From NCBI GenBank assembly GCA_944358825.1, contig CALVSA010000002.1, positions 17,707 through 81,706 on the forward strand: DNA of 64,000 nt, written 5' to 3'. Position numbers and translations under genes: made by a program. Each line of letters begins with the position of its first letter. Position 1 is the stretch's first letter. Shown piece after piece: positions 19,017-63,791 of the stretch. The stretch comes from an uncultured Bacilli bacterium. Its GTDB lineage: Bacteria > Bacillota_I > Bacilli_A > RF39 > UBA660. The notes beneath the pieces are model-generated. The model did no database searches and was not told the DNA's origin. It worked only from the letters and a program-made list of their open reading frames with translations.

Positions 19017-19098
19017 ATTTTCTTTATTATACTACAATATTTGATGTTAATAAATAAAATTTAGTAATTTATATAAAAAAACTAACAATTAAGTTAGT
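19017..19098. repeat. 82-bp direct repeat copy 1 (terminator hairpin plus -10 promoter), identical to 23620..23701
   Basis: Identical over 82 bp. It contains ACTAAC-aattaa-GTTAGT followed by a T-run on the minus strand, and TAgTATAAT just upstream of the ADH RBS. Confidence 0.9.
19026..19060 (-). promoter_or_regulatory. Putative promoter of the ADH gene inside repeat copy 1
   Basis: Minus-strand TATAAT at 19026..19031, about 15 nt upstream of GGAGGT and the ATG. Confidence 0.4.
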
Positions 19099-23619: not shown

Positions 23620-23701
23620 ATTTTCTTTATTATACTACAATATTTGATGTTAATAAATAAAATTTAGTAATTTATATAAAAAAACTAACAATTAAGTTAG
23701 T
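23620..23701. repeat. 82-bp direct repeat copy 2, identical to 19017..19098
   Basis: Identical sequence. The terminator hairpin overlaps the stop codon of the ABC-2 permease gene. Confidence 0.9.
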
Positions 23702-32001: not shown

Positions 32002-32051
32002 ATGGCGTCCCCGATTGGAATTGAACCAACGACCTATCGCTTATGAGGCGA
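32002..32051. repeat. attL-type core repeat (tRNA 3' half)
   Basis: Matches 37842..37891 at 49 of 50 positions. Confidence 0.8.
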
Positions 32052-32079
32052 AGGCATTTTCCTATTATGCTACAGGGAC
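32003..32079 (-). tRNA. tRNA-like gene with anticodon CAT (Met/Ile2-type), probably the element-derived attP-side hybrid copy
   Basis: 77 nt that fold as a cloverleaf with a perfect 7-bp acceptor stem and a D stem GCAT/ATGC. The anticodon stem has a U-U mismatch at its top. It has 3' CCA. Its 3' half is identical to that of tRNA-Arg at 37843. Confidence 0.5.
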
Positions 32080-37841: not shown

Positions 37842-37891
37842 ATGGCGTCCCCGATTGGAATTGAACCAACGACCTATCGCTTAGGAGGCGA
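37842..37891. repeat. attR-type core repeat (tRNA-Arg 3' half)
   Basis: Matches 32002..32051. Confidence 0.8.
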
Positions 37892-37919
37892 TTGCTCTAT
37901 CCTACTGAGCTACGAGGAC
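37843..37919 (-). tRNA. tRNA-Arg (anticodon CCT)
   Basis: 77-nt cloverleaf with acceptor GUCCUCG/CGGGGAC, D arm GCUC-AGUAGGAUA-GAGC, anticodon arm AUCGC-CUCCUAA-GCGAU, T arm GUUGG-UUCAAUU-CCAAU and an encoded CCA. Confidence 0.8.
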
Positions 37920-49162: not shown

Positions 49163-50017
49163 TTATGCTCTTGGATGAGCATTTTCATATACTTTTTTTA
49201 CTTGTTCATTGGTAACATGTGTATAAATACTTGTTGTATCTAGTGATTCATGTCCTAATAATTTTTTAACACTTACTAAATCTGCACCATTATTTAACAT
49301 ATCTGTTGCAAAGGTATGTCTTAACATATGTGGTGTTATTTTAGTTTTAGCACCTGATATTAATTTTATTTTATTTAATATATTTCTTATCGAGGTAGTA
49401 CTTATTTTACCACCATTTTTATTTAGTATTAAGTAGTTAGAATTCTTTTTATTTATTTTATCTCTTTCTTTTAGATAATTATTAAGATTATTTAGACAAT
49501 TAGTAGAAAAGATAACTATTCTTTCTTTGGATCCTTTACCAAATATTTTTATTTCTCGATTATATAAATTAATATCATTTATTTTAATATTAACTAATTC
49601 ACTAACACGAATTCCTGTTACAAATAATAATTCTAATATTAATTTATCACGAATATTTTTAGTTTTAGAAAACATTAACTCTAAATCTTCATCTTTTATA
49701 TATTTTGGTAGTATTTTATCTTTTTTAGGATTTTTATGATTATTAAAATAATTATAAGCAATTATATCATTATTTACTAAATAATTATAAAAACTCCGAA
49801 GAGAGCTTAATTTTCTAGAAATACTATTTTTATTATATTTTTGATTATATAAATATTCTAGATAATAAACTACATCTTCATCTTTTATTTTCAAATAATC
49901 TACTTTATCTAGATAATTTATAAAATCAATAATATCTTTGTAATAATTATTAATAGTATATACAGAATATCTTTTATTACTCTTTATATAAGTAATATAA
50001 TCATCTAAATACTTCAT
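49163..50017 (-). CDS. Tyrosine site-specific recombinase, XerC/XerD family
   Basis: 284 aa. R (GIRVSEL), HMLRHTFAT and GHESLDTTSIYTH catalytic motifs. Confidence 0.75.
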   Translation of the reverse strand: MKYLDDYITYIKSNKRYSVYTINNYYKDIIDFINYLDKVDYLKIKDEDVVYYLEYLYNQKYNKNSISRKLSSLRSFYNYLVNNDIIAYNYFNNHKNPKKDKILPKYIKDEDLELMFSKTKNIRDKLILELLFVTGIRVSELVNIKINDINLYNREIKIFGKGSKERIVIFSTNCLNNLNNYLKERDKINKKNSNYLILNKNGGKISTTSIRNILNKIKLISGAKTKITPHMLRHTFATDMLNNGADLVSVKKLLGHESLDTTSIYTHVTNEQVKKVYENAHPRA

Positions 50018-50118: not shown

Positions 50119-51462
50119 TTAGTTAATTAATTGATAAGGAGAACTCGAAGTTCCATTACCAGAAGTTATTGTAACATTAGAGTTTAGATAAAGGACTGGG
50201 CGGGAGGAGCCGGAGTTAGTAGCATTGTTGAGGTCAACATAACCCATACTATGAACGATAAAGACGCGGTAGGAAATACCAGCGTGAGAAGCGAGTGTCC
50301 ATTGACGATTAGATGAATCATATAAATAATCATTGTTTTTACAATCACTATAACTTGAGCTATCCCAGTTATATAATTCTTTGGCTAAACATGATGCTCT
50401 ATTAGTTGTTGTTCCACCACTTGTTGCATACCCATAATCTGATGGATACATTAGGGCTATTTTACCTACCCATGTGGTTGGATTTCCAGAATATACTGTC
50501 GTTCCTCTTTCATAATTATAAAAGTGGCTGGCTAGTCCATTAGATGCACTTGTATATGAATTTGTTCCACCTAAATTCCATAAAGTGTTGCCAATCATAG
50601 ACTCTGCTTCACTTGTTAAGCTATTTAAATATTCACCATTTAAATATGTATTTAATGAGGCTGTTGACCAGTTGTTTCTATCATTTGAATCCCATACATA
50701 TTTTCCTATACTCTCATCTCTTATTATTTTTAATCTCTTTTCACTTTCGCCATTTTCACTAGATTTTACATCAAATACTCCTATTATTCTCCATAATTCA
50801 TTATTAAAACTTACATAGTTATTAGGATCTGCTCCCATATATCTTATATTACCATCTAGATCATCGTTATTCATGGTAGTTGGATTACTATCAAGTAATG
50901 ATGTTATTACATCAGTAGCTAATTTTGATTTAATATATTCACTACTTATTCCATCACTTACTATTTTTGCACTAAAAATCTTACCAATTTCCGTATTTGG
51001 TGTATTTATATCTAACCATATTCTTATACTTATTATCTTACTTTCTCCTGGATTTAGAGTTAAATCACTGGCTATAATATTATTCTCTAGATTAGATAAA
51101 CTAACAGGTTCATTATTATCTACCATTATTTTTATATAATTAGGATTTATTTGATTAGATGTAGTAGTGTTATTTAATAACAAATCAAAAGTATAAGCTA
51201 AATTACCTTTATTTGTTATTTTAAATCTATAAGGAGTACTACTCTTTCCCTCTTCATCTGTTATAGGCAAACTATTTGTAAGATTTAGTACCTCTCCTAA
51301 TCCTTCTTCATCATTTTCTATTACTATATCTAATATACCCGCAGTATAACTTTCTGTATTTTCTAGTTTATCTTTTCTAAAAAATAAAGCATAAGTAGTA
51401 GTTGATAAAATTAATAAAACTACTATTATTGATATAACTAATATAATTACTTTCTTTTTCAT
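50119..51462 (-). CDS. Secreted protein with a TasA/camelysin-like (SipW-cognate signal-peptide class) N-terminal domain and a unique Asn/Ser/Tyr-rich C-terminal domain
   Basis: The N-terminus MKKKVIILVISIIVVLLILSTTTYALFFRKDKLENTESYTAGILDI resembles TasA/CalY TWAAFNDIK...FASGTLDL. VLNLTNSLP...FKITNKGNLAYTFDL resembles VNLSNLKPGD..FENNGSLAI. The first ~180 aa are ~90% identical to the paralog at 61057. Confidence 0.5.
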   Translation of the reverse strand: MKKKVIILVISIIVVLLILSTTTYALFFRKDKLENTESYTAGILDIVIENDEEGLGEVLNLTNSLPITDEEGKSSTPYRFKITNKGNLAYTFDLLLNNTTTSNQINPNYIKIMVDNNEPVSLSNLENNIIASDLTLNPGESKIISIRIWLDINTPNTEIGKIFSAKIVSDGISSEYIKSKLATDVITSLLDSNPTTMNNDDLDGNIRYMGADPNNYVSFNNELWRIIGVFDVKSSENGESEKRLKIIRDESIGKYVWDSNDRNNWSTASLNTYLNGEYLNSLTSEAESMIGNTLWNLGGTNSYTSASNGLASHFYNYERGTTVYSGNPTTWVGKIALMYPSDYGYATSGGTTTNRASCLAKELYNWDSSSYSDCKNNDYLYDSSNRQWTLASHAGISYRVFIVHSMGYVDLNNATNSGSSRPVLYLNSNVTITSGNGTSSSPYQLIN

Positions 51463-51601
51463 ATTTTTACTCCTTTACATAACAAAAAAACAGAAAAAGA
51501 TTCTAAAATTTAGAATTATTTTCTGTTTTTACTGTTTTATTATTAAATATTTTACTATTTTTTAGTAATAAATTTGACCCCCGCATTTACTTATAGTTAA
51601 C
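50938..51601. repeat. Duplicated ~665-bp segment, copy A (5' coding region plus promoter plus upstream terminator), paralogous to 61648..62312
   Basis: About 90% nucleotide identity with long identical runs, including the hairpin AAAAACAGAAAAAGATTCTAAA-ATTTAGAATTATTTTCTGTTTTT. Confidence 0.85.
51486..51530 (-). terminator. Rho-independent terminator (long imperfect hairpin plus U-run) upstream of the TasA-like gene
   Basis: AAAAACAGAAAAAGATTCTAAAATTTAGAATTATTTTCTGTTTTT. Confidence 0.5.
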
Positions 51602-51633
51602 ATATTTATTTTCATTATTACACCTTCTTATTC

Positions 51634-52218
51634 TTATAAACTACTACGAAATGATTTTAATTCCTTAATAAAATCAGTAGTTTCTTCTTCATCTGTTATA
51701 TTATATAATTTTTCTTTATTTGTATTTAATAATTCTTTATATGAGATAATTGCTTCTTCTTCTTGCTTTTTCTCATAATCAGTAAGTTCTATAGTTTGTG
51801 GTTTATATTCGTTTTCTAGTTTTCTTGTTACTTCTTCAGTAAATGAAATATTTTCTTTTTTATCTAATTTATCTATTTTTATTTCATCATTTACAATATT
51901 AATTGGAGAAGTTTGATACCTTGCTGATATATCTTTTAATACATTTTTAGAATAAGGTCCTTCTTGTTTTTTTATTTCTTCTTTTACCTCTTCTACTTTT
52001 GGTACTTCTTTTATAACTTCTTTAATTACTTCTTTTACTATTTCTTTTGGTTCATTTTCTTTTAATTTAATAATTTCTTTTAACTTCTTATTTTTAATCG
52101 ATAAACTAATAGAAATAATAATTAATAATATAAAAGTAAAAATAACTACCCACAGTATTATCAACTCAATTGTACTTAAATTATTATAAATATTTACAAA
52201 ATTATCGATTACATACAT
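51634..52218 (-). CDS. Membrane-anchored protein with a KE-rich repeat region (KEVIKEVIKEV)
   Basis: 194 aa. N-terminal TM helix, then a charged repeat region. Confidence 0.45.
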   Translation of the reverse strand: MYVIDNFVNIYNNLSTIELIILWVVIFTFILLIIISISLSIKNKKLKEIIKLKENEPKEIVKEVIKEVIKEVPKVEEVKEEIKKQEGPYSKNVLKDISARYQTSPINIVNDEIKIDKLDKKENISFTEEVTRKLENEYKPQTIELTDYEKKQEEEAIISYKELLNTNKEKLYNITDEEETTDFIKELKSFRSSL

Positions 52219-52222
52219 AACA

Positions 52223-52933
52223 TCACTTCCTACAATTATAATTAATAATACTTGCTACATATATTGCAGCTGTCTCTACTCTTAAGATTAATTTACCAAA
52301 AGATACACTTATAAAATCACTTTTATTTAATTCTTCTTCCTCTTTTGGTTCAATCCCGCCTTCAGGGCCAATTACTACTATAATTTTATCATATTTTTTT
52401 ATGTTTTGTAAATAGTTAGAGATTAAATTTTCTTCTTTTGTACTTGCAATTAATTTTAGATCGTAATCTTCTTTTATTAACTCTTTTATTGTCATTGGTT
52501 TTTCAATTTTTGGAATTAAATCTCTTTTTGATTGTTCACTTGCTTCTTTGCATATACTATGCCATCTATCTAATTTTTTATCTATTTTTTTATCTTCTAG
52601 TTTAACAATACTTCTATTTAATTTTAAAGGTATAATTTTCTTTACACCTAGTTCTGTTAACTTTTGTAAAATTAAATCCATCTTTTGTTCTTTAACTAAA
52701 CCAATAGCAATTGTAATATCTATATCTAATTCATTATTTTCTTCTATAGTTTTGATTATTTCTATATCATTATTATTTATATTATTAATATTTGCAATAT
52801 ATAATTTTTCCTCATAAACTACTTCTATTTTATCATTATCTTTATATCTCATAACATTTTTTAGATGATGATAATCACTATCTAATAGAGTTACTTTATT
52901 ATTTTCTATATTTTTAACAAAATATCTTTGCAT
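52223..52933 (-). CDS. rsmE: 16S rRNA (uracil1498-N3)-methyltransferase RsmE family
   Basis: 236 aa. The C-terminal SPOUT motif is IIVVIGPEGGIEPKEEEEL. It lies downstream of dnaJ, as in Bacillus. Confidence 0.7.
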   Translation of the reverse strand: MQRYFVKNIENNKVTLLDSDYHHLKNVMRYKDNDKIEVVYEEKLYIANINNINNNDIEIIKTIEENNELDIDITIAIGLVKEQKMDLILQKLTELGVKKIIPLKLNRSIVKLEDKKIDKKLDRWHSICKEASEQSKRDLIPKIEKPMTIKELIKEDYDLKLIASTKEENLISNYLQNIKKYDKIIVVIGPEGGIEPKEEEELNKSDFISVSFGKLILRVETAAIYVASIINYNCRK

Positions 52934-52996
52934 AAAATCACCTACTAATTATTTTATCAAATAATTTTATATTAATCTATAATAAAAAGAAAGTTT

Positions 52997-54109
52997 TTAA
53001 TCTCTTAAGAACTTTCTTATTTTATTTAGAAAAGAATTATCTTCTTTCATAACATTATTTAAATTTTCAAAAGCTTTTTTCTCTTCTTTAGTTAATTTAG
53101 TTGGAATTTGTACTTTTATAGTAACATACATATCTCCTTTTTTAGAAGTATTTACATTGGCTACTCCTTTTGATCTTAATTTTAATTTACTATTACTTTG
53201 TGTACCTGCAGGTATTGTTAAATCTACTTTACCATATAAAGTTGGTATTTCTTTTTTACATCCTAGTACTGCTTCCGGAATTGTAATTGGTAAATCTAGA
53301 TATATATCATCGTCTTCTCTTTGATATATTTCATGGTCTTTAACACTAAATTCGATATATAAATCTCCATTACGACCACCATTTATTCCAGCTTCACCTT
53401 TTTGGGCAAGACGAAGTCTATTTCCATCATCGATACCCGCTGGTATATTTACTTCAATAGTTTTAGTTGTTTTAATACGACCTATTCCACGACAATTGCT
53501 GCATTTTTTAGCGTAAGTTTTTCCTTTTCCTTGACATTCTGGACAAGTAGTTCTAGTTAAGAATGATCCGAAAATTGTTCTTTGCTCACTAGTGATGGTT
53601 CCACTTCCATGACACTGGCTACATGTTGTCTCATCAAAGCCACCCTTACCATTACATTCACTACATGTATCTTCTAAAGTTACTTTTAGATCTTTTTTAC
53701 AACCAAATACTGCTTCTTCAAAAGTTAGATTCATATGTTCTAATATATCATCGCCACGACGGGCATTGGAGCTTTTACTTCTAGATGATGAAAATCCAAA
53801 GCCCATACCTCCTAGGATGTCATCAAATATATCTGACATACTACCAAAATCAAAGCCATCAAAACCACTAAAGCCACCTTGAGCATTTGTAAATGCACTA
53901 TGTCCAAATTGATCATATTTTCTACGTTTTTCTTCATCAGATAAAACTGCATATGCTTCTTGGGCTTCTTTAAATTTTTCAGCAGCATTTTCTTCTTTTG
54001 AAACATCCGGATGATATTTTTTTGCTAGCTTTCTAAAGGCTGATTTTATTTCATCTTGGCTTGCTGTTTTAGAAACACCAAGTATTTCATAATAGTCTTT
54101 TTTATTCAT
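52997..54109 (-). CDS. dnaJ: Chaperone DnaJ
   Basis: J domain (DYYEILGV...KKYHPD), G/F region and four CxxCxGxG zinc-finger repeats. Confidence 0.9.
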
Positions 54110-54156
54110 AAATAACCTCTTTCTATTATATAAGAGAAGTCCTAGTTACCTAGAAC

Positions 54157-56001
<1,845 letters not shown>

Positions 56002-56052
56002 TTATTTTTTCGCCCAATTATAAAGGGCATGTTTTCCCTTTTTATTCTTTAT

Positions 56053-56259
56053 TTATTCATCATCATTTTTAGCATCAATTATTTTTACTTTTTTATTACT
56101 TTTAGTTGTCTTTTTTGGTTTCATTGAATTATATATTAGAAAAGCTACTATTATAATTAAAACTATTGGTAATAACCAAATAAATAATTTAACAGCAATT
56201 ATAGCAATAACAATTGCAAGTATTATATATAATATTTGTTTTATATTATTTTTATCCAT
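56053..56259 (-). CDS. Small membrane protein (68 aa) inserted between grpE and dnaK
   Basis: AGGAG RBS. A two-TM hydrophobic core with a lysine-rich tail. Confidence 0.45.
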   Translation of the reverse strand: MDKNNIKQILYIILAIVIAIIAVKLFIWLLPIVLIIIVAFLIYNSMKPKKTTKSNKKVKIIDAKNDDE

Positions 56260-56269
56260 TACTCATCTC

Positions 56270-56791
56270 CTAACTATTTACTTTAACCATTGCTGGTCTT
56301 ATTACTTTATCTTTATAAGTATAACCTTTTTGCATGACATCTAATATAATACCTTCTTCTTTAGTATCATCATGTTCCTGCAAAACAGCTTGATGATAAG
56401 TTGGATCAAATTTAGTGTTTAAGGCATTTATTTCTTTTACTTCTAATTTGTCTAATACATTTTTTAAATCAGCATAAATCATTTTAAAACCACTTAAGAA
56501 TTTAGATACTTCATCTTCTAAATTATCATCATCCATATTAATTGCTCTTTCAAAGTTATCAAGAATTGGTAGTATTTGTTTTATTATATCTTCATTAGCA
56601 TATTTTAACATTTTTGAGACTTCTTCATCACGTCTTCTTTTATAATTCATAAGTTCTGCTTGATTGCGAAGCAAACTGTTTTCTAATTCTTTTATTCTAT
56701 TACCAAGTAATTCTACTTCATTATTTGTTATTTCTTCTTCTATTTCTTCATTTTCTATTTTTTTCTTTTTATCTTCTTTTTTAGTTTTCAT
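56270..56791 (-). CDS. grpE: Nucleotide exchange factor GrpE
   Basis: 173 aa with the GrpE pattern (..ILPILDNFERAI.., DVMQKGY..). Confidence 0.85.
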   Translation of the reverse strand: MKTKKEDKKKKIENEEIEEEITNNEVELLGNRIKELENSLLRNQAELMNYKRRRDEEVSKMLKYANEDIIKQILPILDNFERAINMDDDNLEDEVSKFLSGFKMIYADLKNVLDKLEVKEINALNTKFDPTYHQAVLQEHDDTKEEGIILDVMQKGYTYKDKVIRPAMVKVNS

Positions 56792-57785
56792 CTTGACCTC
56801 CTATATTTTGTTTTATATAATCGAGCAATCCAACAACTTTATCATATTCCATTCTTTTTGGTCCAATAATGGCAATAGTTCCTTCATCACCATCAATATT
56901 ATATTTTGTTTTTACTATCGATAAATCATCAGAAATATCACTATCACTACCGATATAGATATTTACTCCATTATCATCTTCAGTCATTTTATCTACAAAA
57001 GAAATATTATCAAATTTATTTAAAATATCTTTTACTTTATCAATATCATTAAATTCTGGTTGATTTAAAAATTTAGTTTTGCCCGCGAAGTGAACATCAC
57101 TATTTTTATGATTTATTTCATTAAAAGCATCATAGAAAGTATTATATAATATTTCATGTTGTTTTACATATTTAGCGATAATTGGTTTTACTGAATATTC
57201 TAATTTCTCACTTATTTCATCAAGTGGTGTACCAACGACTAATTTATTTATTAAATCAACTGTTTTTTTAACCTCTTCAGTAGAAATTGTTAATGGTAAA
57301 TTAAGTGTTTTATGTTCAACAAAACCTTTATCAGTAATTACCATAGTTAGTACTTTATTAGCTTCTAGTGGAATTGTTTCTACTTTTTTCAATCTATTAT
57401 CTTGGGCACTTTTACCTAATACTAGTGTAGTATAATTAGTAATTTCAGAAACTATCTCAATACTTTTTTTAATTGTATCATTTAAATCAAGAGTACTATT
57501 ATGAAAAATTGTTTGTAATTTTAACATATCTTCGCCACTCATATTTTTAGGTTGCATCAAATTATTTACATAATAACGATATCCTTCTTCACTTGGTTGG
57601 CGTCCTGATGCAAAATGATTTTTCTCTAAAAGATGATAGTCTTCTAAAATTACCATTTCATTTCTAATTGTTGCTGAAGAACAATTTAGTTTATTGCATA
57701 TTTTATTTGAACTTACTGGTTTAGCTGTTTTTATATATTCTTCAACAATGTATTTTAATATTTCTTTTTGTCTTTCTGTAAGCAT
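56781..57785 (-). CDS. hrcA: Heat-inducible transcription repressor HrcA
   Basis: 334 aa. N-terminal winged helix MLTERQKEILKYIVEEYIKTAKPVSS. First gene of the dnaK operon. Confidence 0.85.
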   Translation of the reverse strand: MLTERQKEILKYIVEEYIKTAKPVSSNKICNKLNCSSATIRNEMVILEDYHLLEKNHFASGRQPSEEGYRYYVNNLMQPKNMSGEDMLKLQTIFHNSTLDLNDTIKKSIEIVSEITNYTTLVLGKSAQDNRLKKVETIPLEANKVLTMVITDKGFVEHKTLNLPLTISTEEVKKTVDLINKLVVGTPLDEISEKLEYSVKPIIAKYVKQHEILYNTFYDAFNEINHKNSDVHFAGKTKFLNQPEFNDIDKVKDILNKFDNISFVDKMTEDDNGVNIYIGSDSDISDDLSIVKTKYNIDGDEGTIAIIGPKRMEYDKVVGLLDYIKQNIGGQDEN

Positions 57786-57925
57786 TTTATCACTTCCTTG
57801 GCAATGCTATTATATGACTGCTAAAGTAATTATATGATATTTTTTTAGCAGTGTCAATAGAAAACTGCTAATTTTTTGTTTTTTTTATAAAAAAAACTTC
57901 GAGTTTGACTCAAAGTTTATTAAAA

Positions 57926-58705
57926 CTATAATGTTTTTTTATTTGCATCTCTATAATTTAAATCTTCTTGGTAGTTATATAACTCTTCATAACTAATATC
58001 TATAGTATCATTTAAATTATAATAATTAGTTATACTAGAAATTGCTAAATTAGGATCACCAATAATGGCGTTTTTAACATTCTCGCATTCACTACCTACT
58101 CCATCTTGATAGTAACTAATAAGTTGTCCGTCATAATAAATTGCCTTACTACTAATAGTATCTCCTTCTTTAAATTCTTTTTTTCCTTCTGGCAAAACTA
58201 TTTTTGTATCTAAATCTCTTTTAGCACTCATAGAAGAGCTTATTACATCATAAGTAACACCTGCTAGTTCGCTTATTTTCTGATGTTTTAATGTATAGTC
58301 AAAATTATCAGAGTTTAACCACTCATTAGTGTTATACATACTATATGAATCAGGTAAAACTATTTTTATGTTTTCACGATAAAATGCTGAAGTCTTATCG
58401 TTAAAAATATTTGTTCCATATTCTTCACTTTGTTCTATTTTAGCAAAATTAAGAGTTCTAATAGTATTATTAAAATCATAATTTTCACTATAAAAATTAC
58501 TTCTATCAACGACATAAGTATATAATCCATCTTTTGTTCCTACAAGAGAACTACTTACATTATAACCTATTTCTTTTTCTTCTTTTCCTTTATTATTACA
58601 AGATGTAAGTCCCAATAATGTGGTAGCTGCTAAAGCTAAACTGATGGTTCTTTTGCTCATTTTCTTTAAAAATTCTTTGTTTACATTTAAGTTATTTATT
58701 TTCAT
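57926..58705 (-). CDS. Lipoprotein (259 aa)
   Basis: Signal peptide with lipobox LTSC. Confidence 0.55.
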   Translation of the reverse strand: MKINNLNVNKEFLKKMSKRTISLALAATTLLGLTSCNNKGKEEKEIGYNVSSSLVGTKDGLYTYVVDRSNFYSENYDFNNTIRTLNFAKIEQSEEYGTNIFNDKTSAFYRENIKIVLPDSYSMYNTNEWLNSDNFDYTLKHQKISELAGVTYDVISSSMSAKRDLDTKIVLPEGKKEFKEGDTISSKAIYYDGQLISYYQDGVGSECENVKNAIIGDPNLAISSITNYYNLNDTIDISYEELYNYQEDLNYRDANKKTL

Positions 58706-58923
58706 ATAACTCTTTCCCCCTTTTTTAAATTGCTGTTATTATAGCACTTTATATCTTACTTGTCAAGTATTTTATAATACATTTGTTTTTATCAAAATTA
58801 AAAAAATTTAATTTATTTATTTTTTTGTATAATTTATTTATTTATAGAACATAATATTAACGGAAAACAAAATAGTTTTCCATTAAAAGAAGCACTTGGG
58901 TATTTACTCAAGTGCTTTTTATT

Positions 58924-59796
58924 TTATCCATTTATTTGTTTTGCAACTTCATCAGCAAAGTTTTCTTCTTTTTTCTCCATTCCTTCACCAACTTCATAAC
59001 GTACAAAACTATTTATTTTACTATTTTTAGATTCAACATATTTACCAACTTTAGTTTTATTTTCTTTTACAAAGCCTTGATCAACTAAACATACTTCTTC
59101 ATAAAATTTATTTAGGCGTCCATTTACTATCATTGGTATTTTATTAGTATCTAAACCTTCATTTTCAGCTTGTTCTGTTAAAATAGTTTTTTCTTTTTCA
59201 ATTACTTCACTTGGAACTTCTTCTCTAGTTAAATAACTAGGACGCATTGCAGCAATTTGCATGGCAATATCTTTAGCTAGTTCTACGTCATTTCCATCCA
59301 TTACACATAATGTTACTATTTTACCACCCATATGTGAATATGTTCCAAATACTTGATTATCTTCTTTTGTTACTTTTGTAAATCTTCTAAATGATAATTT
59401 TTCACCAATTGTAGATATTTTTTCAACAATTAACTCTTCTAATGTTTTATCATCAACATTTAATTTTAGTGCATCTTCAACATTAGTAACATTACTTTCT
59501 AATAAAATATCAGCAATTTTATCTACTAAAGATTTAAACTCTTCATTTTTAGCAACAAAATCAGTTTCAGAATTTACTTCTAATATAACTGCATTATTAC
59601 CGTTTACTTTTGTAAGTCCAAGTCCTTCTGCTGCGATTCTTGAAGCTTTTTTAGCGGCTTTAGAGATACCTTTTTCTCTTAACCATGTAATTGCTTCTTC
59701 CATATTACCATTAGTTTCTTCTAATGCTTTTTTACAATCTAACATGCCGGCGCCAGTTGTTTCTCTTAATTCTTTAACCATGCTTGCACTTATCAT
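58924..59796 (-). CDS. tsf: Elongation factor Ts
   Basis: 290 aa. N-terminal UBA-like region VKELRETTGAGMLDCKKALEE. Confidence 0.9.
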   Translation of the reverse strand: MISASMVKELRETTGAGMLDCKKALEETNGNMEEAITWLREKGISKAAKKASRIAAEGLGLTKVNGNNAVILEVNSETDFVAKNEEFKSLVDKIADILLESNVTNVEDALKLNVDDKTLEELIVEKISTIGEKLSFRRFTKVTKEDNQVFGTYSHMGGKIVTLCVMDGNDVELAKDIAMQIAAMRPSYLTREEVPSEVIEKEKTILTEQAENEGLDTNKIPMIVNGRLNKFYEEVCLVDQGFVKENKTKVGKYVESKNSKINSFVRYEVGEGMEKKEENFADEVAKQING

Positions 59797-59810
59797 TTTA
59801 CTCTTCCTTT

Positions 59811-60788
59811 CTATTTTAAGCTTGCTATTAATTCATCTTTTTTCATTTTTGAATAGCCTTTTATTTCTTTTTTCTTGGCTAATTCACGTAGTTCAGATAC
59901 TGTTAATATTTCTAAATCTATTTTAGTTTCAACTTCTTTATTAACTGTTTCTTCTTTTTTTGGCTCTTCTTTTGTTTCTTTTACTTCTTTATTTTCTTTT
60001 TTCTCTTCTTTTTTAGTTTCTTTTTTTACTTCTTTGGTCTTTTTGCTTTCGCTTTTATCGAATTTAGTTTTCTTATTTTCATCTTCTGTTACATAATCTA
60101 CTAAAGTACCACCATTAGCTTCTACTATTGCATTTGTTAATGCTCCAAGAACAACTTTAATACTTCTTACTGCATCATCGTTTCCTGGAATTACATAATC
60201 TACCATATCTGGATCACAATTTGTATCAATTATTCCAAATACTGGTATTTTTAATTTTCTAGCCTCACGAATAGCGTTGTATTCTTTAGTTGAATCAACA
60301 ATAATAATTGCTTGTGGTAATCTTTGCATATCGCGAATACCATGTAGGTTACGATCTAATTTTTCGTATTCTTTTTTAAGACCAATTACTTCTTTTTTAG
60401 GTAATTTTTCAAATGTACCATCTTTTTCCATCTTTTCGATTTCTTCTAATCTGTTAACTCTTTTTCTAATTGTTCTAAAATTAGTTAGTGTTCCTCCTAA
60501 CCATCTTTCAGTAACATAATACATTCCTGCTCTTTCAGCTTCTTCTTTGCAAACTTCACTAGCTTGTTTTTTAGTTCCAACGTATAGAACTTTTCCACCT
60601 TCTTGAGCAATTTTGTGTAAAGCATTATATGCTTCTTCTATTTTTTCTACTGTTTTAGATAAATCGATAATATAAATATCGTCTCTTGAGTTGTAGATAT
60701 ACTCTTTCATTTTTGGATTCCATCTTTTGGTTTGATGACCAAAATGAACTCCAGCTTCTAATAAGTAGCTCATAGATACTACTGCCAT
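59811..60788 (-). CDS. rpsB: 30S ribosomal protein S2 with a ~100-aa Lys/Glu-rich C-terminal extension ending in a Rho_N/SAP-like helix-extended-helix motif
   Basis: [27 protein letters not shown] is a canonical S2 N-terminus, with an AAGGAGG RBS before ATG at 60788. The tail is [54 protein letters not shown]. Confidence 0.9.
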
Positions 60789-61056
60789 TTTATTTCCTCC
60801 TTTTGTTTTTCCTCCAAATACTTCTTCTTTAAACATCACCTAATAGGCACTAGATATTTAAATCAGTATTTGTGTGTATTTTTGAAAAGCCATAAATATA
60901 TTATCATGTTTTATGGCTTTTTACAACTATATTTTGTTATTTTTTTATGTTTTTTTAAAGCGATGCTTAATGATTTATCTAAATACTATTATATATTATG
61001 TTTATTTATATATATGATGTATGTATATGATAAATTATTATATACATAATAGCAAC

Positions 61057-62172
61057 TTAACAACTAAATCCGCCATTTCCAATATCTTCTGCTCCACCTC
61101 CACCTTTTGCATAAACAACACCACCATTTATTCTAATTATACCTGTAACAGAAGCCTCTTTATAACCTCCAATTCCTGCACCACCACCTGCTCCACTTCC
61201 ATTATCATAACCTTCCATATTAGTTGCTCCTATTCCTACTCCTCTACCTTCTGAATTTAATACCCCTGTTCCATCTATTATTAATTTTGATGAATAAGAA
61301 ACATATAAACCAACTGATGGTGAAGCACTTGAAGAAGAATTTGTTTTTAAACTATTTTCTCCTTCAATTTGCAAATTAACTACTGAATCATTAAATAATC
61401 TAAATGTGCCTCCATTAAATCTATCTTCTGTTATACTAACATTATTTAATGTTATATTAGATTCTCCTCCATTAATAGTTACTCCTCTATTATCTGTTGC
61501 AGTTCCTGTTATAACAATAGGTGTTTTATTTGATATTTCTTGTTGAGAATCTAGTCCTCCACCACTTACTAATAATGTATTATCACCATTTCCTTTATCT
61601 ATAGTAATTGCTCCTTTTGATATACCTAAATTCATTATTTCTGGAGCCTCACTACCTACTCCATCACTTACTATTTTTGCACTAAAAATTTTTCCTATTT
61701 CACTATTTGGTGTATTTATATCTAACCATATTCTTATACTTATTACCTTACTTTCTCCTGGATTTAGAGTTAAATCACTGGCAATAATTGAATCTTTTAA
61801 ATTAGATAAAGTAACTAGCTCTTTATTATCTACCATTATTTTTATATAATCAGAATTTATTTGATTAGAAGTAGTTGTATTATTTAACAACAAATCAAAT
61901 GTATAAGATAAATTACCCTTATTAGTTATCTTAAACTTATATGGATTACTTTTCTTACCTTCTTCATCTGTTATAGGCAAACTATTTGCAAGATTTAGAG
62001 TTTCCCCTAATCCTTCTTCATCGTTTTCTATTACTATATCTAGTATTCCAGCAGTATAACTTTCCGTATTTTCTAGTTTATCTTTTCTAAAAAATAAAGC
62101 ATAAGTAGTAGTAGATAATATAACTAAAACCACTATTATTGATATAACTAATATAATTACTTTTCTATTCAT
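61057..62172 (-). CDS. Secreted protein with a TasA/camelysin-like N-terminal domain and a Gly-rich (beta-helix-like repeat) C-terminal domain; paralog of 50119..51462
   Basis: The N-terminal ~180 aa are near-identical to the paralog. The C-terminus is GGGLDSQQ...GSGAGGGAGIGGYKEASVTG...GGGGAEDIGNGG. A GAAGGAG RBS precedes ATG at 62172. The track start at 62193 is further upstream. Confidence 0.5.
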   Translation of the reverse strand: MNRKVIILVISIIVVLVILSTTTYALFFRKDKLENTESYTAGILDIVIENDEEGLGETLNLANSLPITDEEGKKSNPYKFKITNKGNLSYTFDLLLNNTTTSNQINSDYIKIMVDNKELVTLSNLKDSIIASDLTLNPGESKVISIRIWLDINTPNSEIGKIFSAKIVSDGVGSEAPEIMNLGISKGAITIDKGNGDNTLLVSGGGLDSQQEISNKTPIVITGTATDNRGVTINGGESNITLNNVSITEDRFNGGTFRLFNDSVVNLQIEGENSLKTNSSSSASPSVGLYVSYSSKLIIDGTGVLNSEGRGVGIGATNMEGYDNGSGAGGGAGIGGYKEASVTGIIRINGGVVYAKGGGGAEDIGNGGFSC

Positions 62173-62312
62173 ATTACTCCTTCTTTCACACAATAAAAAA
62201 ACAGAAAAAGATTCTAAAAATTAGAATTATTTTCTGTTTTTATTATTTTATTATTAAATATTTTATTATTTTTTAGTAATAAATTTGACCCCCATATTTA
62301 CTTGTAGTTAAC
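61648..62312. repeat. Duplicated ~665-bp segment, copy B
   Basis: Paralogous to 50938..51601. Confidence 0.85.
62196..62241 (-). terminator. Terminator hairpin, duplicate of 51486..51530, downstream of the aminopeptidase gene
   Basis: AAAAAAACAGAAAAAGATTCTAAAAATTAGAATTATTTTCTGTTTTT. Confidence 0.5.
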
Positions 62313-62413
62313 TTGTTATTTACTTTATTATTTATATTTAGGCTTTGCTCTTTTAACATATTAACCACTTCCTTTACTATTTAAGTATATCACATTAGTT
62401 AATTTTCTGCAAT

Positions 62414-63575: not shown

Positions 63576-63791
63576 ATGTACCCAAATTACCAAAATGTTT
63601 ATTCTAATAATATGAGAAGACCCCCAATGCGTCCTGGGCGACCAATTGGCCCAAATAATAGGTTTTTTGGCGGAGGATTTTTAGGACCATTTATCCTTGG
63701 TGGAATAACTGGCGGTTTGCTTGCACCATCTTTTTACCCTCGTCCTATGCCTTATGGTCCACCTCCACCACCATATCCTATATATTATTAA
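63576..63791 (+). CDS. Small Pro/Gly/Tyr-rich protein (71 aa)
   Basis: Strong GGAGG RBS. Low-complexity composition: PPMRPGRP..GGGFLGPFILGG..PPPPPYPIYY. A perfect terminator follows. Confidence 0.5.
   Translation: MYPNYQNVYSNNMRRPPMRPGRPIGPNNRFFGGGFLGPFILGGITGGLLAPSFYPRPMPYGPPPPPYPIYY

Follow-up and report, generated by a model that had tools for sequence, protein, structure and literature searches.

TasA-family proteins are single-domain subunits of biofilm fibres. The pilE/pilS genes of Neisseria, the tpr genes of Treponema and the MgPa repeats of Mycoplasma are dispersed paralogs that swap short tracts, which leaves paralog-derived polymorphism between near-clonal strains, and conversion in these systems diversifies an exposed variable region. 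Two genes, A and B, in the 64 kb stretch of DNA analyzed here (the window) can be compared with both. The N-terminal module common to their products shares with TasA and CalY (PF12389; tapA-sipW-tasA operon of Bacillus; fibre structure PDB 8aur) an aromatic-Ala cleavage motif (TWA/AF in TasA, TYA/LF in the module), a short segment followed by x-x-G-x-L-D-[LI], and the motif F-x-[FI]-x-N-x-G-[SN]-L (PMC9674648). Both probably have a beta-sandwich core, and both have an adjacent gene for a dedicated SipW-type peptidase, in the case of the module in relatives. In contrast to TasA, the similarity of the module falls under the curated thresholds, it has ~150 mature residues compared with 234, and it is joined to large C-terminal domains, of which TasA has none. 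The module genes are also dispersed single genes with many paralogs per genome and, in this lineage, with no adjoining sipW or tapA.

BsaA and BsaB of Clostridium perfringens (sipW-bsaA-bsaB-bsaC with adjacent srtB) are likewise remote homologs of TasA, recognized by profile methods only (PMC11580942). They resemble the module family in having multiple paralogs, signal-peptidase and sortase genes nearby (locus L021 in our set) and no LPXTG, and donor-strand exchange is proposed for both (PMC11580942). BsaA is a single-domain protein, whereas the present module is joined to heads of various kinds and appears subject to gene conversion. A conserved Asn-Glu-Lys isopeptide triad as in BsaA was not evident in the module, and family members vary in the Lys content of the segment that comes after the signal peptide; a BsaA-like isopeptide "lock" was considered and set aside because this segment has no invariant Lys. 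The archaeal bundling pili AbpA/AbpB (PDB 7ueg) probably share with the module a TasA-like jelly-roll or beta-sandwich, and 7ueg was among the top structural matches of the module, with modest scores. The AbpA/AbpB locus, like this lineage, has no dedicated peptidase nearby, and AbpB was proposed to bear distal adhesin domains on its donor-strand module (PMC9245690). These pili, however, belong to another domain of life, and no assembly-gene operon was seen with the module genes. Fusions of adhesin domains to TasA-like proteins were sought in the literature, and none was found.

Both genes are on the reverse strand. Gene A (50119..51462) encodes 447 aa, which the open reading frame, homologs and domain split resolve into the N-module and a DUF6273/C-type-lectin-fold head. 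Gene B (61057..62172) encodes the N-module followed by a putative Gly-rich beta-helix, as judged from the open reading frame and from homologs with PF18889. The open reading frame of gene B was listed as 61057..62193 with a TTG start; the likely start is the ATG at 62172, which has GGAGTAA ahead of it and gives 371 aa. This ribosome-binding site is present ahead of both genes, as had been proposed. Exact-sequence look-up of protein A and of P0022 returned no recorded identical entry for either. A tyrosine recombinase gene (49163-50017) is directly downstream of gene A, and the essential genes dnaK, rpsB and tsf stand between A and B.

A repeat search and MAFFT alignment defined a direct repeat of ~670-685 nt, 50938-51606 versus 61648-62317, with 88.8-89% identity, a single 1-nt indel and a longest exact run of 47 nt. 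It is present in two copies within the window and contains a 145-nt leader and codons 1-176 of each gene (N-modules 50935..51462 in A and, by alignment, 61645..62172 in B), stopping sharply at codon ~176, which is the domain boundary. Over residues 1-176 the two proteins have 88% identity, with one difference in residues 4-57, and further on they cannot be aligned. The original prediction of a ~665-bp duplication that covers the leader and ~180 codons, followed by unrelated C-termini, is therefore confirmed. The high identity it emphasized holds with a reservation: the shared segments differ with dS 0.41 and dN 0.068 (dN/dS ~0.17), so that the two copies, taken over their whole length, are not freshly homogenized.

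The N-module of gene A consists of a signal peptide (~codons 1-25, predicted cleavage TYA/LFF), a putative donor-strand segment (~codons 26-46) and a predicted beta-sandwich. On the evidence of profile comparison, the module is probably a distant relative within the TasA superfamily. The family profile aligned by hhalign with TasA alone at 92% probability and with a 117-sequence TasA-family profile at 95% (E 3.8e-8, 79 columns); with signal peptides removed the probabilities were 62% for the profile (E 7.8e-5, 56 columns) and 31% for the single TasA sequence. The score of this last, mature-only comparison was 29.6, versus 15.4 or less in 30 shuffled controls. The alignment places TWA/AF of TasA on TYA/LF of the module, and FASGTLDL on YTAGILDI. 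Peptidase_M73 was the most recurrent Pfam match in the family (9/22 and 17/32 members; best E 1.6e-4, sub-threshold), the NCBIfam TasA model NF046066 matched 5 of 32 (E no better than 9.6e-5, with scores well short of its cut-off), and TIGR04088 matched 3 of 32 weakly (best E 0.016). For A and B themselves, PF12389 (Peptidase_M73) gave 18.6 and 17.5 bits, and 20.9 for the isolated module, all below the cut-off of 22.5; NF046066 gave no match, and TIGR04088 none at E≤1. Module HMM profiles searched against PDB sequences did not retrieve TasA, phmmer searches of the PDB sequences with the complete A and B proteins were uninformative, and Foldseek of the module against the PDB gave no match at E≤1e-3, with TasA outside the top 50. 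The model of the monomer shows disorder at residues 29-39, which follow the predicted cleavage site. The TasA/camelysin likeness expected for the N-terminal domains is partly supported: it was seen in profile-profile alignment, less clearly once signal peptides were removed, and was missed by curated family thresholds and by structural search.

A SipW-type peptidase is directly upstream in 10 of 37 related loci (L011, L012, L018-L025), in the order sipW, a gene of ~500 aa, and the N-module gene. The peptidase at L021 (3656-4312) was assigned with TIGR02228 at 92.2 bits (cut-off 51.85), and a class B sortase is adjacent to that sipW locus, as also in the bsa locus of C. perfringens (PMC11580942). 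A tblastn search of the 64 kb window with the L021 SipW (E≤1e-3) found no sipW, none was found beside six further paralog loci of the same genus, and L041 is syntenic with the L021 sipW locus yet has no sipW. We infer that A and B are cleaved by SipW in this genome.

The family has 5,047 representatives of protein clusters at E≤1e-3, with protein lengths of 124 to 1011 aa and the module N-terminal in every member, and in this species group it occupies six or more dispersed loci. The C-terminal domain of gene A (50122..50934), a putative ligand-binding head with a C-type-lectin-like fold, has both the family-model match and the fold of DUF6273 (Pfam PF19789). Its relatives are the N-terminal domain of the Thomasclavelia ramosa IgA protease (PDB 9qa6) and the "tentaclin" receptor-binding proteins of phages, which are targeted by DGRs, whereas in gene A the domain sits C-terminal to a TasA-like module. 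Action of a DGR on the lectin head was considered and is not favoured, with no reverse transcriptase or template-like repeat seen in the window. The putative C-terminal beta-helix domain of gene B (61060..61644) does not itself match PF18889 (Beta_helix_3); P0123, a homolog of B with 70% identity at 100% coverage, does so with 28.5 bits (cut-off 27). Gene B stops after GNGGFSC, where a paralog in another strain runs on into a HINT domain. Other heads in the family are beta-helix with HINT, LamG/FGE-sulfatase-like and DUF285/LRR.

The leaders have a common organization, in which the stop of a small upstream open reading frame is followed after ~31 nt by a hairpin with seven U residues and, ~22 nt further, by the main ATG. 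Leader A, as the non-coding part of the repeat, is 51463..51606 by alignment, with a small upstream frame at 51562..51615 (17 aa, MKINMLTISKCGGQIYY) and a terminator-like hairpin with U-tract at 51479..51530 (hairpin proper 51486-51530). Leader B is 62173..62400, of which 62173-62317 is common to A and the further upstream part, to ~62400, is common to paralogs E and F of related strains; its small frame is at 62273..62359 (28 aa, MLKEQSLNINNKVNNKLTTSKYGGQIYY) and its hairpin with U-tract at 62190..62241 (hairpin proper 62197-62241), all on the reverse strand. Small frames of 17 or 28 codons with a Shine-Dalgarno sequence are present in 9 of 10 leaders, and their peptides share the motif SK[Y/C]GGQIYY. 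This is the layout of a leader-peptide transcription attenuator, namely, a short frame with its own Shine-Dalgarno sequence and then an intrinsic-terminator hairpin upstream of the gene. No alternative antiterminator structure was evident in MFE folds of the leaders, and no Rfam family matched them, a weak t44/rpsB-leader match being located elsewhere only. Whereas the upstream terminator hairpin of the original prediction is present in both leaders, the promoter that it put in the shared segment could not be placed, because scanning the shared leader for sigma-70-like sites gave none on the strand of the genes; a promoter between hairpin and start codon is ruled out by the ~22 nt that separate them, and the conserved upstream block is the short frame instead. 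The common leader would co-regulate the family, and the combination of small frame and hairpin is a candidate for a new cis-regulatory element.

Related strains were compared on metagenome contigs (L001, L039-L045), in which repeats can be mis-assembled, and among those 99.1-99.7% identical the module differences were 20- to 25-fold, up to ~45-fold, in excess, most of them being alleles present in other paralogs. The window and L001 are 99.1% identical across 20.9 kb; of their 178 mismatches, 75 fall within a ~1-kb stretch that spans the module (L001 9750-10750). Among 66 differing sites, at least one allele is present in paralog B or C at 65, and both are at 23, in patches. Over the 8.9 kb shared with L042 there are 31 mismatches, all in gene B and 25 of them in the module, where the L042 allele is that of paralog A or C at 21. 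At the aspS locus three strains have 49-54 mismatches per 680 bp, compared with 25-35 per ~8.5 kb. Between strains of 99.1% identity homology ends at codon ~175-180, the 3' edge of the module; for the pair L043 and L045 it returns after the gene. The excess of paralog alleles and the break at the module edge are the grounds on which these comparisons indicate gene conversion among paralogs and exchange of heads at the 3' edge of the module. Unlike in the pilE/pilS, tpr and MgPa systems, conversion here would affect the leader and the export/assembly module, which are conserved, and C-terminal cassettes would be swapped as wholes at the edge of the module. The proposed module shuffling or gene conversion is thus supported, and continuing homogenization holds as short-tract conversion among paralogs, although it does not extend to the entire shared segments of A and B.

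The strain mosaics could have been produced by short-read assembly, if paralogs of ~90% identity, or strains present together, led to path switching or bubble merging; many MAG contigs do terminate within the module, which is troublesome for assemblers, and downstream of the aspS flank L044 has another neighbourhood, as a chimera would. We consider an artefact of this kind unlikely, since paralog C is 100% identical (0/674 positions differ) in two independent samples and assemblies, the excess was seen again and again, in five strain pairs at three loci, and every mosaic is in frame. The exact runs between paralogs, mostly 44-120 nt, are also short for switching in and out of a path at large k, the flanks of L043 and L045 are collinear with the cassette alone different, and across many independent assemblies the N-module stays at ~90% identity, in contrast to C-terminal parts that are anywhere from 98% to 48% identical. 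An old duplication whose copies resemble each other through strong purifying selection on protein and leader alone, with no continuing exchange, would agree with the dS and dN/dS of A and B, which denote old divergence and strong constraint, but it is very improbable, as it leaves unexplained both the 4-10% divergence of the module against 0.3-0.9% of the flanks in near-clonal strains and the occurrence of the variant alleles in other paralogs. Least probable of all is Mycoplasma-style phase or antigenic variation, in which the neighbouring site-specific recombinase would move one expression site among cassettes. The position of the recombinase gene, the common 5' leader and signal sequence, and a host in a low-GC gut Bacilli lineage would suit this explanation; however, the enzyme is XerC/XerD-like (299 bits versus XerC), no such recombinase is next to the other paralogs sampled, every copy has its own leader and ribosome-binding site, and the lipobox is absent. 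Inversion or a shufflon driven by this enzyme was rejected on its XerC/D-like character and on the arrangement of A and B as direct repeats around dnaK, rpsB and tsf, with no inverted copies in the window.

A different question is whether the module assembles at all. It may be a signal-anchor, or a cleaved signal peptide with a generic Ig-like stalk, that exports the C-terminal domain, holds it at a distance from the cell and so presents a monomeric adhesin, with a likeness to TasA that is fold-level or ancient. We regard this as possible but doubtful. The family alignment shows no variation at A25, and the small residues at -1/-3 (T-Y-A) suit a cleavage site; Y39, G42, L44 and I46, just past the signal peptide, show strict conservation and fall on the donor-strand/first-strand region of TasA when aligned. 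The sipW gene adjoins in the 10 loci described above, the family includes stand-alone module proteins of ~175-190 aa, in which a lone stalk would be purposeless, and a missing nearby peptidase is also true of the archaeal TasA homologs (PMC9245690).

We therefore favour, with a probability of about 0.6, the interpretation that A and B belong to a dispersed, gene-converted family in which a TasA-like common 5' unit, polymerizing or fibre-docking, is combined with a swappable 3' cassette. The common unit would comprise the leader with its upstream frame and terminator-like hairpin, a SipW/TasA-type signal peptide, a donor-strand-like segment and an eight-stranded beta-sandwich; the cassette would be a binding or structural head, a DUF6273 C-type-lectin fold in A and a beta-helix in B. 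After export and cleavage of the signal peptide, the N-module may polymerize by TasA-like donor-strand complementation or dock onto such a fibre, and so display its head; fibre formation and co-polymerization are predictions of this model. Purifying selection (dN/dS ~0.17) would keep the module near-identical because every paralog needs the same peptidase and the same acceptor groove, recurrent short-tract conversion among paralogs would also keep it similar, and the sharp 3' edge would serve as the recombination joint for exchange of cassettes. A more far-reaching proposal, to be taken as tentative and on balance improbable, is that uncultured low-GC gut Bacilli build heteropolymeric TasA-like surface fibres out of many paralogs, each with its own lectin-like or beta-helix head, in which conversion preserves compatibility of the modules, strains swap heads at a fixed joint and a hitherto undescribed attenuator-type leader, with its conserved small peptide and terminator, provides co-regulation.

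In summary, thousands of surface proteins of uncultured gut Bacilli, otherwise unrelated, appear to carry the TasA-like module as a portable export/assembly "handle", and their heads include lectin folds with relatives in an IgA protease and in the receptor-binding proteins of phages. The strain comparisons offer a clean natural case of concerted evolution in which the conserved module, not the variable part, is affected and cassettes are exchanged at a domain boundary. If the subunits polymerize, they would form a modular adhesive-fibre system, functionally like tip-adhesin pili but with TasA chemistry, and this, if true, would help to account for the attachment of these gut bacteria, with their reduced genomes, to host or glycan.

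The duplicated segment is real. Within the window, which has a G+C content of 25%, a single direct repeat links genes A and B, at 50938-51606 and 61648-62317, with ~89% identity and no more than 47 nt in a row without a mismatch, and only these two copies are present. Gene A (50119-51462, minus strand) is an ORF of 447 aa, and gene B (61057-62172, minus strand) encodes 371 aa from an ATG preceded by GGAGTAA. The repeat consists of a leader of ~145 nt and codons 1-176, that is, the N-module with its signal peptide and beta-sandwich, and its identity ends sharply at the domain boundary; residues 1-176 of the two proteins are 88% identical, and what follows them is unrelated. The shared coding part has a dS of 0.41 and a dN of 0.068 (Nei-Gojobori), which indicates old copies under strong purifying selection, not freshly homogenised ones.

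Curated profiles did not provide the matches anticipated for the N-module. Pfam Peptidase_M73 scored 17.5-20.9 bits for A, B and the module, below the cut-off of 22.5, and an NCBIfam scan of A and B gave no match to TIGR04088 or to TasA. When 1.84 billion representative proteins were searched with the profile, 5,047 family members passed E<=1e-3, and 2,759 of them also passed E<=1e-10. Peptidase_M73 was the commonest Pfam match among diverse members (9 of 22, then 17 of 32), and the only specific NCBIfam families that recurred in 32 members were TasA (5/32, best E 9.6e-5) and the SipW-cognate signal (3/32). With hhalign, the family profile matched B. subtilis TasA with 92% probability; the TasA sequence used is 100% identical to PDB 8aur over residues 28-261. 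Against a TasA-family profile of 117 sequences the module reached 95% (E 3.8e-8). The alignment superposes the signal peptides, with the TasA cleavage site TWA/AF on TYA/LF of the module, and pairs FASGTLDL with YTAGILDI and FQFENNGSLA with FKITNKGNLA. Without signal peptides, the single-sequence comparison gave 31% and a score of 29.6, with none of 30 shuffles scoring above 15.4, and the profile comparison gave 62% (E 7.8e-5). As far as sequence comparison can tell, the TasA signal in the module family is specific and recurrent despite the failed curated searches. We consider the module to be a distant member of the TasA superfamily, with a probability of roughly three in four; that it actually polymerises by donor strand is an inference, with a chance slightly below even.

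The strongest independent support for this relationship is a genomic association. Ten of 37 related loci, from metagenome-assembled genomes of gut Bacilli including Clostridium sp. CAG:914, have the order signal peptidase, ~500-aa gene, N-module gene; the peptidase is of the SipW/archaeal type (92 bits with TIGR02228, whose cut-off is 51.85) and the C-terminus of the ~500-aa product is module-like. Such loci, exemplified by the CAG:914 contig L021, where a class B sortase adjoins the sipW locus, mirror the tapA-sipW-tasA (PMC9674648) and sipW-bsaA (PMC11580942) arrangements. The proteins encoded between sipW and the N-module gene (L021 4323-5972, with equivalents in L011, L012 and L018-L025) are ~450-550 aa long and carry a membrane segment at the N-terminus, and their C-terminal ~120 aa resemble the module beta-sandwich and end in W.DYE.I.N..MN.AF.GT.KVY; they could be TapA-like anchors or initiators. 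The expected sipW partner is missing from this region, with none beside the module genes in the window or in the close-relative paralog loci sampled; archaeal TasA homologs likewise depend on a peptidase encoded elsewhere (PMC9245690). As a separate observation, the CAG:914 sipW operon is flanked by a type IV pilin gene and the class B sortase gene (L021 2055-2540 and 8262-9125), and paralog D, which follows efp, adjoins a Tad-type pilus cluster (TadE, CpaE-like ATPase, TadA, TadB/C; L041 12657-17104). These neighbourhoods bring to mind the bsa locus of C. perfringens, for which secretion dependent on type IV pili has been reported.

Throughout the family the module is N-terminal, in proteins of 124-1011 aa, and stand-alone module proteins of 175-190 aa also exist. 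The attached C-termini comprise one or two copies of DUF6273, a beta-helix (PF18889), a beta-helix with pretoxin-HINT, DUF285/BspA-type LRR, LamG with an FGE-sulfatase-like domain, and several unknown domains. The end of gene B (GNGGFSC and stop, 61057-61080) falls at the exact Cys where the aspS-locus paralog of contig L043 (9011-10573) runs on into a pretoxin-HINT/intein-like domain (C/FVVGTPV), and gene B looks like a HINT-less form of a self-processing protein.

At least six module loci exist in the species group. Locus A has a 194-aa gene on one side and xerC/D on the other, and locus B has an M29 aminopeptidase gene and rpsB as its neighbours; C, D, E and F follow holA, efp, aspS and tuf, respectively. 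The rpsB gene at locus B (59811-60839, minus strand) encodes ribosomal protein S2 with a long Lys/Glu-rich C-terminal extension that ends in a Rho_N-like domain (Pfam, L001 ortholog), and its 5' end (60805-60894, minus strand) gave a weak match to the t44/rpsB-leader of Rfam (31.6 bits, where the gathering score is 44). The strains used for comparison are metagenome assemblies in every case. Strain L001 is 99.1% identical across 20.9 kb, and 75 of the 178 mismatches lie within ~1 kb (L001 9750-10750) that covers the leader and module of gene A. At 65 of the 66 differing module sites at least one allele is found in paralog B or C, and at 23 both alleles are, grouped in contiguous patches. Strain L042 is 99.65% identical across 8.9 kb; all 31 differences fall inside gene B. 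The module holds 25 of these, and at 21 of the 25 the L042 allele is that of paralog A or C. Comparison of three strains at the aspS locus shows 49-54 differing sites in 680 bp of module against 25-35 in ~8.5 kb of flank. The homology of 99.1%-identical strains stops there exactly at codon ~175-180, the C-terminus being a beta-helix with HINT (520 aa), a short beta-helix (290 aa) or an unrelated 594-aa form, and between L043 and L045 it restarts right after the gene. Judged from these alignments, the pattern is the signature of short-tract gene conversion between paralogs in the module, together with the swapping of C-terminal cassettes at the 3' edge of the module. A second L001 mismatch hot spot (L001 2500-3750; ~39 in ~1.2 kb against a background of ~1 per 250 bp) coincides with a putative lipoprotein gene (57926-58705, minus strand; 259 aa, with LLGLTSCNN), which shows no difference in strain L042.

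Several other explanations (ALTERNATIVES) bear on this pattern. Purifying selection by itself cannot explain it, since paralog-derived polymorphism between near-clonal strains would be left unaccounted for. That the mosaics arose in metagenome assembly is improbable: paralog C is identical in two independent assemblies (0 of 674 positions differ), the same pattern recurs in five strain pairs and three loci, and L043 and L045 are collinear on both flanks, although the downstream neighbourhood of L044 is also changed, with an aspS-to-thyA junction, and that contig could be chimeric. Phase variation by inversion is unlikely, as the copies are direct repeats either side of essential genes, the neighbouring recombinase is XerC/D-like and no recombinase occurs at the other paralog loci. 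The recombinase gene (49163-50017, minus strand) lies directly downstream of gene A and appears to encode a housekeeping enzyme. As to the module itself, a monomeric signal-anchor with an Ig-like stalk is a possible but less likely reading.

The leader departs from the order of terminator, promoter and RBS first proposed. Its hairpin, a two-part stem of ~19 bp followed by U7 (MFE -22 to -26 kcal/mol, z -2.4 to -3.9), ends ~22 nt upstream of the start codon and is retained in paralog C, whose stem carries several paired substitutions. What is conserved further upstream is a small ORF that has a Shine-Dalgarno sequence of its own; it is found in nine of ten leaders, ~31 nt before the hairpin, and each paralog of the species group has it, F included. 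It has 28 codons in paralogs B, E and F (MLKEQSLNINNKVNNKLTTSKYGGQIYY; B copy 62273-62359, minus strand) and 17 in A and C (MKINMLTISKCGGQIYY; A copy 51562-51615, minus strand), and its peptide always ends in LT[T/I]SK[Y/C]GGQIYY, also in L039, L040, L042, L043 (two copies), L044 and L045. In L001 a G5 run inside the uORF is G6 (L001 9880-9900, window 51570-51580), which breaks the frame, and a 37-aa ORF is called at that position; the change could reflect a sequencing error in the homopolymer or a genuine on/off variant. Paralog F keeps the leader despite a very different N-terminal coding region (~57% nucleotide identity), so the leader is conserved in its own right. The order uORF, terminator-like hairpin, RBS and gene is the layout of a leader-peptide attenuator, and this may be its function; no antiterminator was evident in the MFE folds of the leader, and an Rfam search gave no match. 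An ordinary cassette of terminator, promoter and RBS, found elsewhere in the window, shows by comparison a clear TTAACA-N17-TATAAT promoter between hairpin and RBS. That cassette is an 82-nt direct repeat, 100% identical, at 19017-19098 and 23620-23701, with a terminator hairpin and then this good promoter upstream of the RBS on the minus strand, and appears to be an intergenic expression cassette duplicated ahead of two different genes. Genes for tRNA-Met (CAT) and tRNA-Arg (CCT), at 32003-32079 and 37843-37919 (minus strand), share 82% identity across 94 nt including flanks. A Pro/Gly/Tyr-rich ORF of 71 aa (63576-63791, plus strand), without a family match, ends in PYGPPPPPYPIYY; its IYY ending, as in the leader peptide, is probably a coincidence.

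The original prediction was largely right about a TasA-like module, unrelated heads and gene conversion; as regards the promoter, matches to curated profiles and a sipW in this region, it was wrong or is unproven. What is new here is that uncultured gut Bacilli use a probable TasA-superfamily module as a common handle, one that evolves in concert and bears surface-protein heads that can be swapped.
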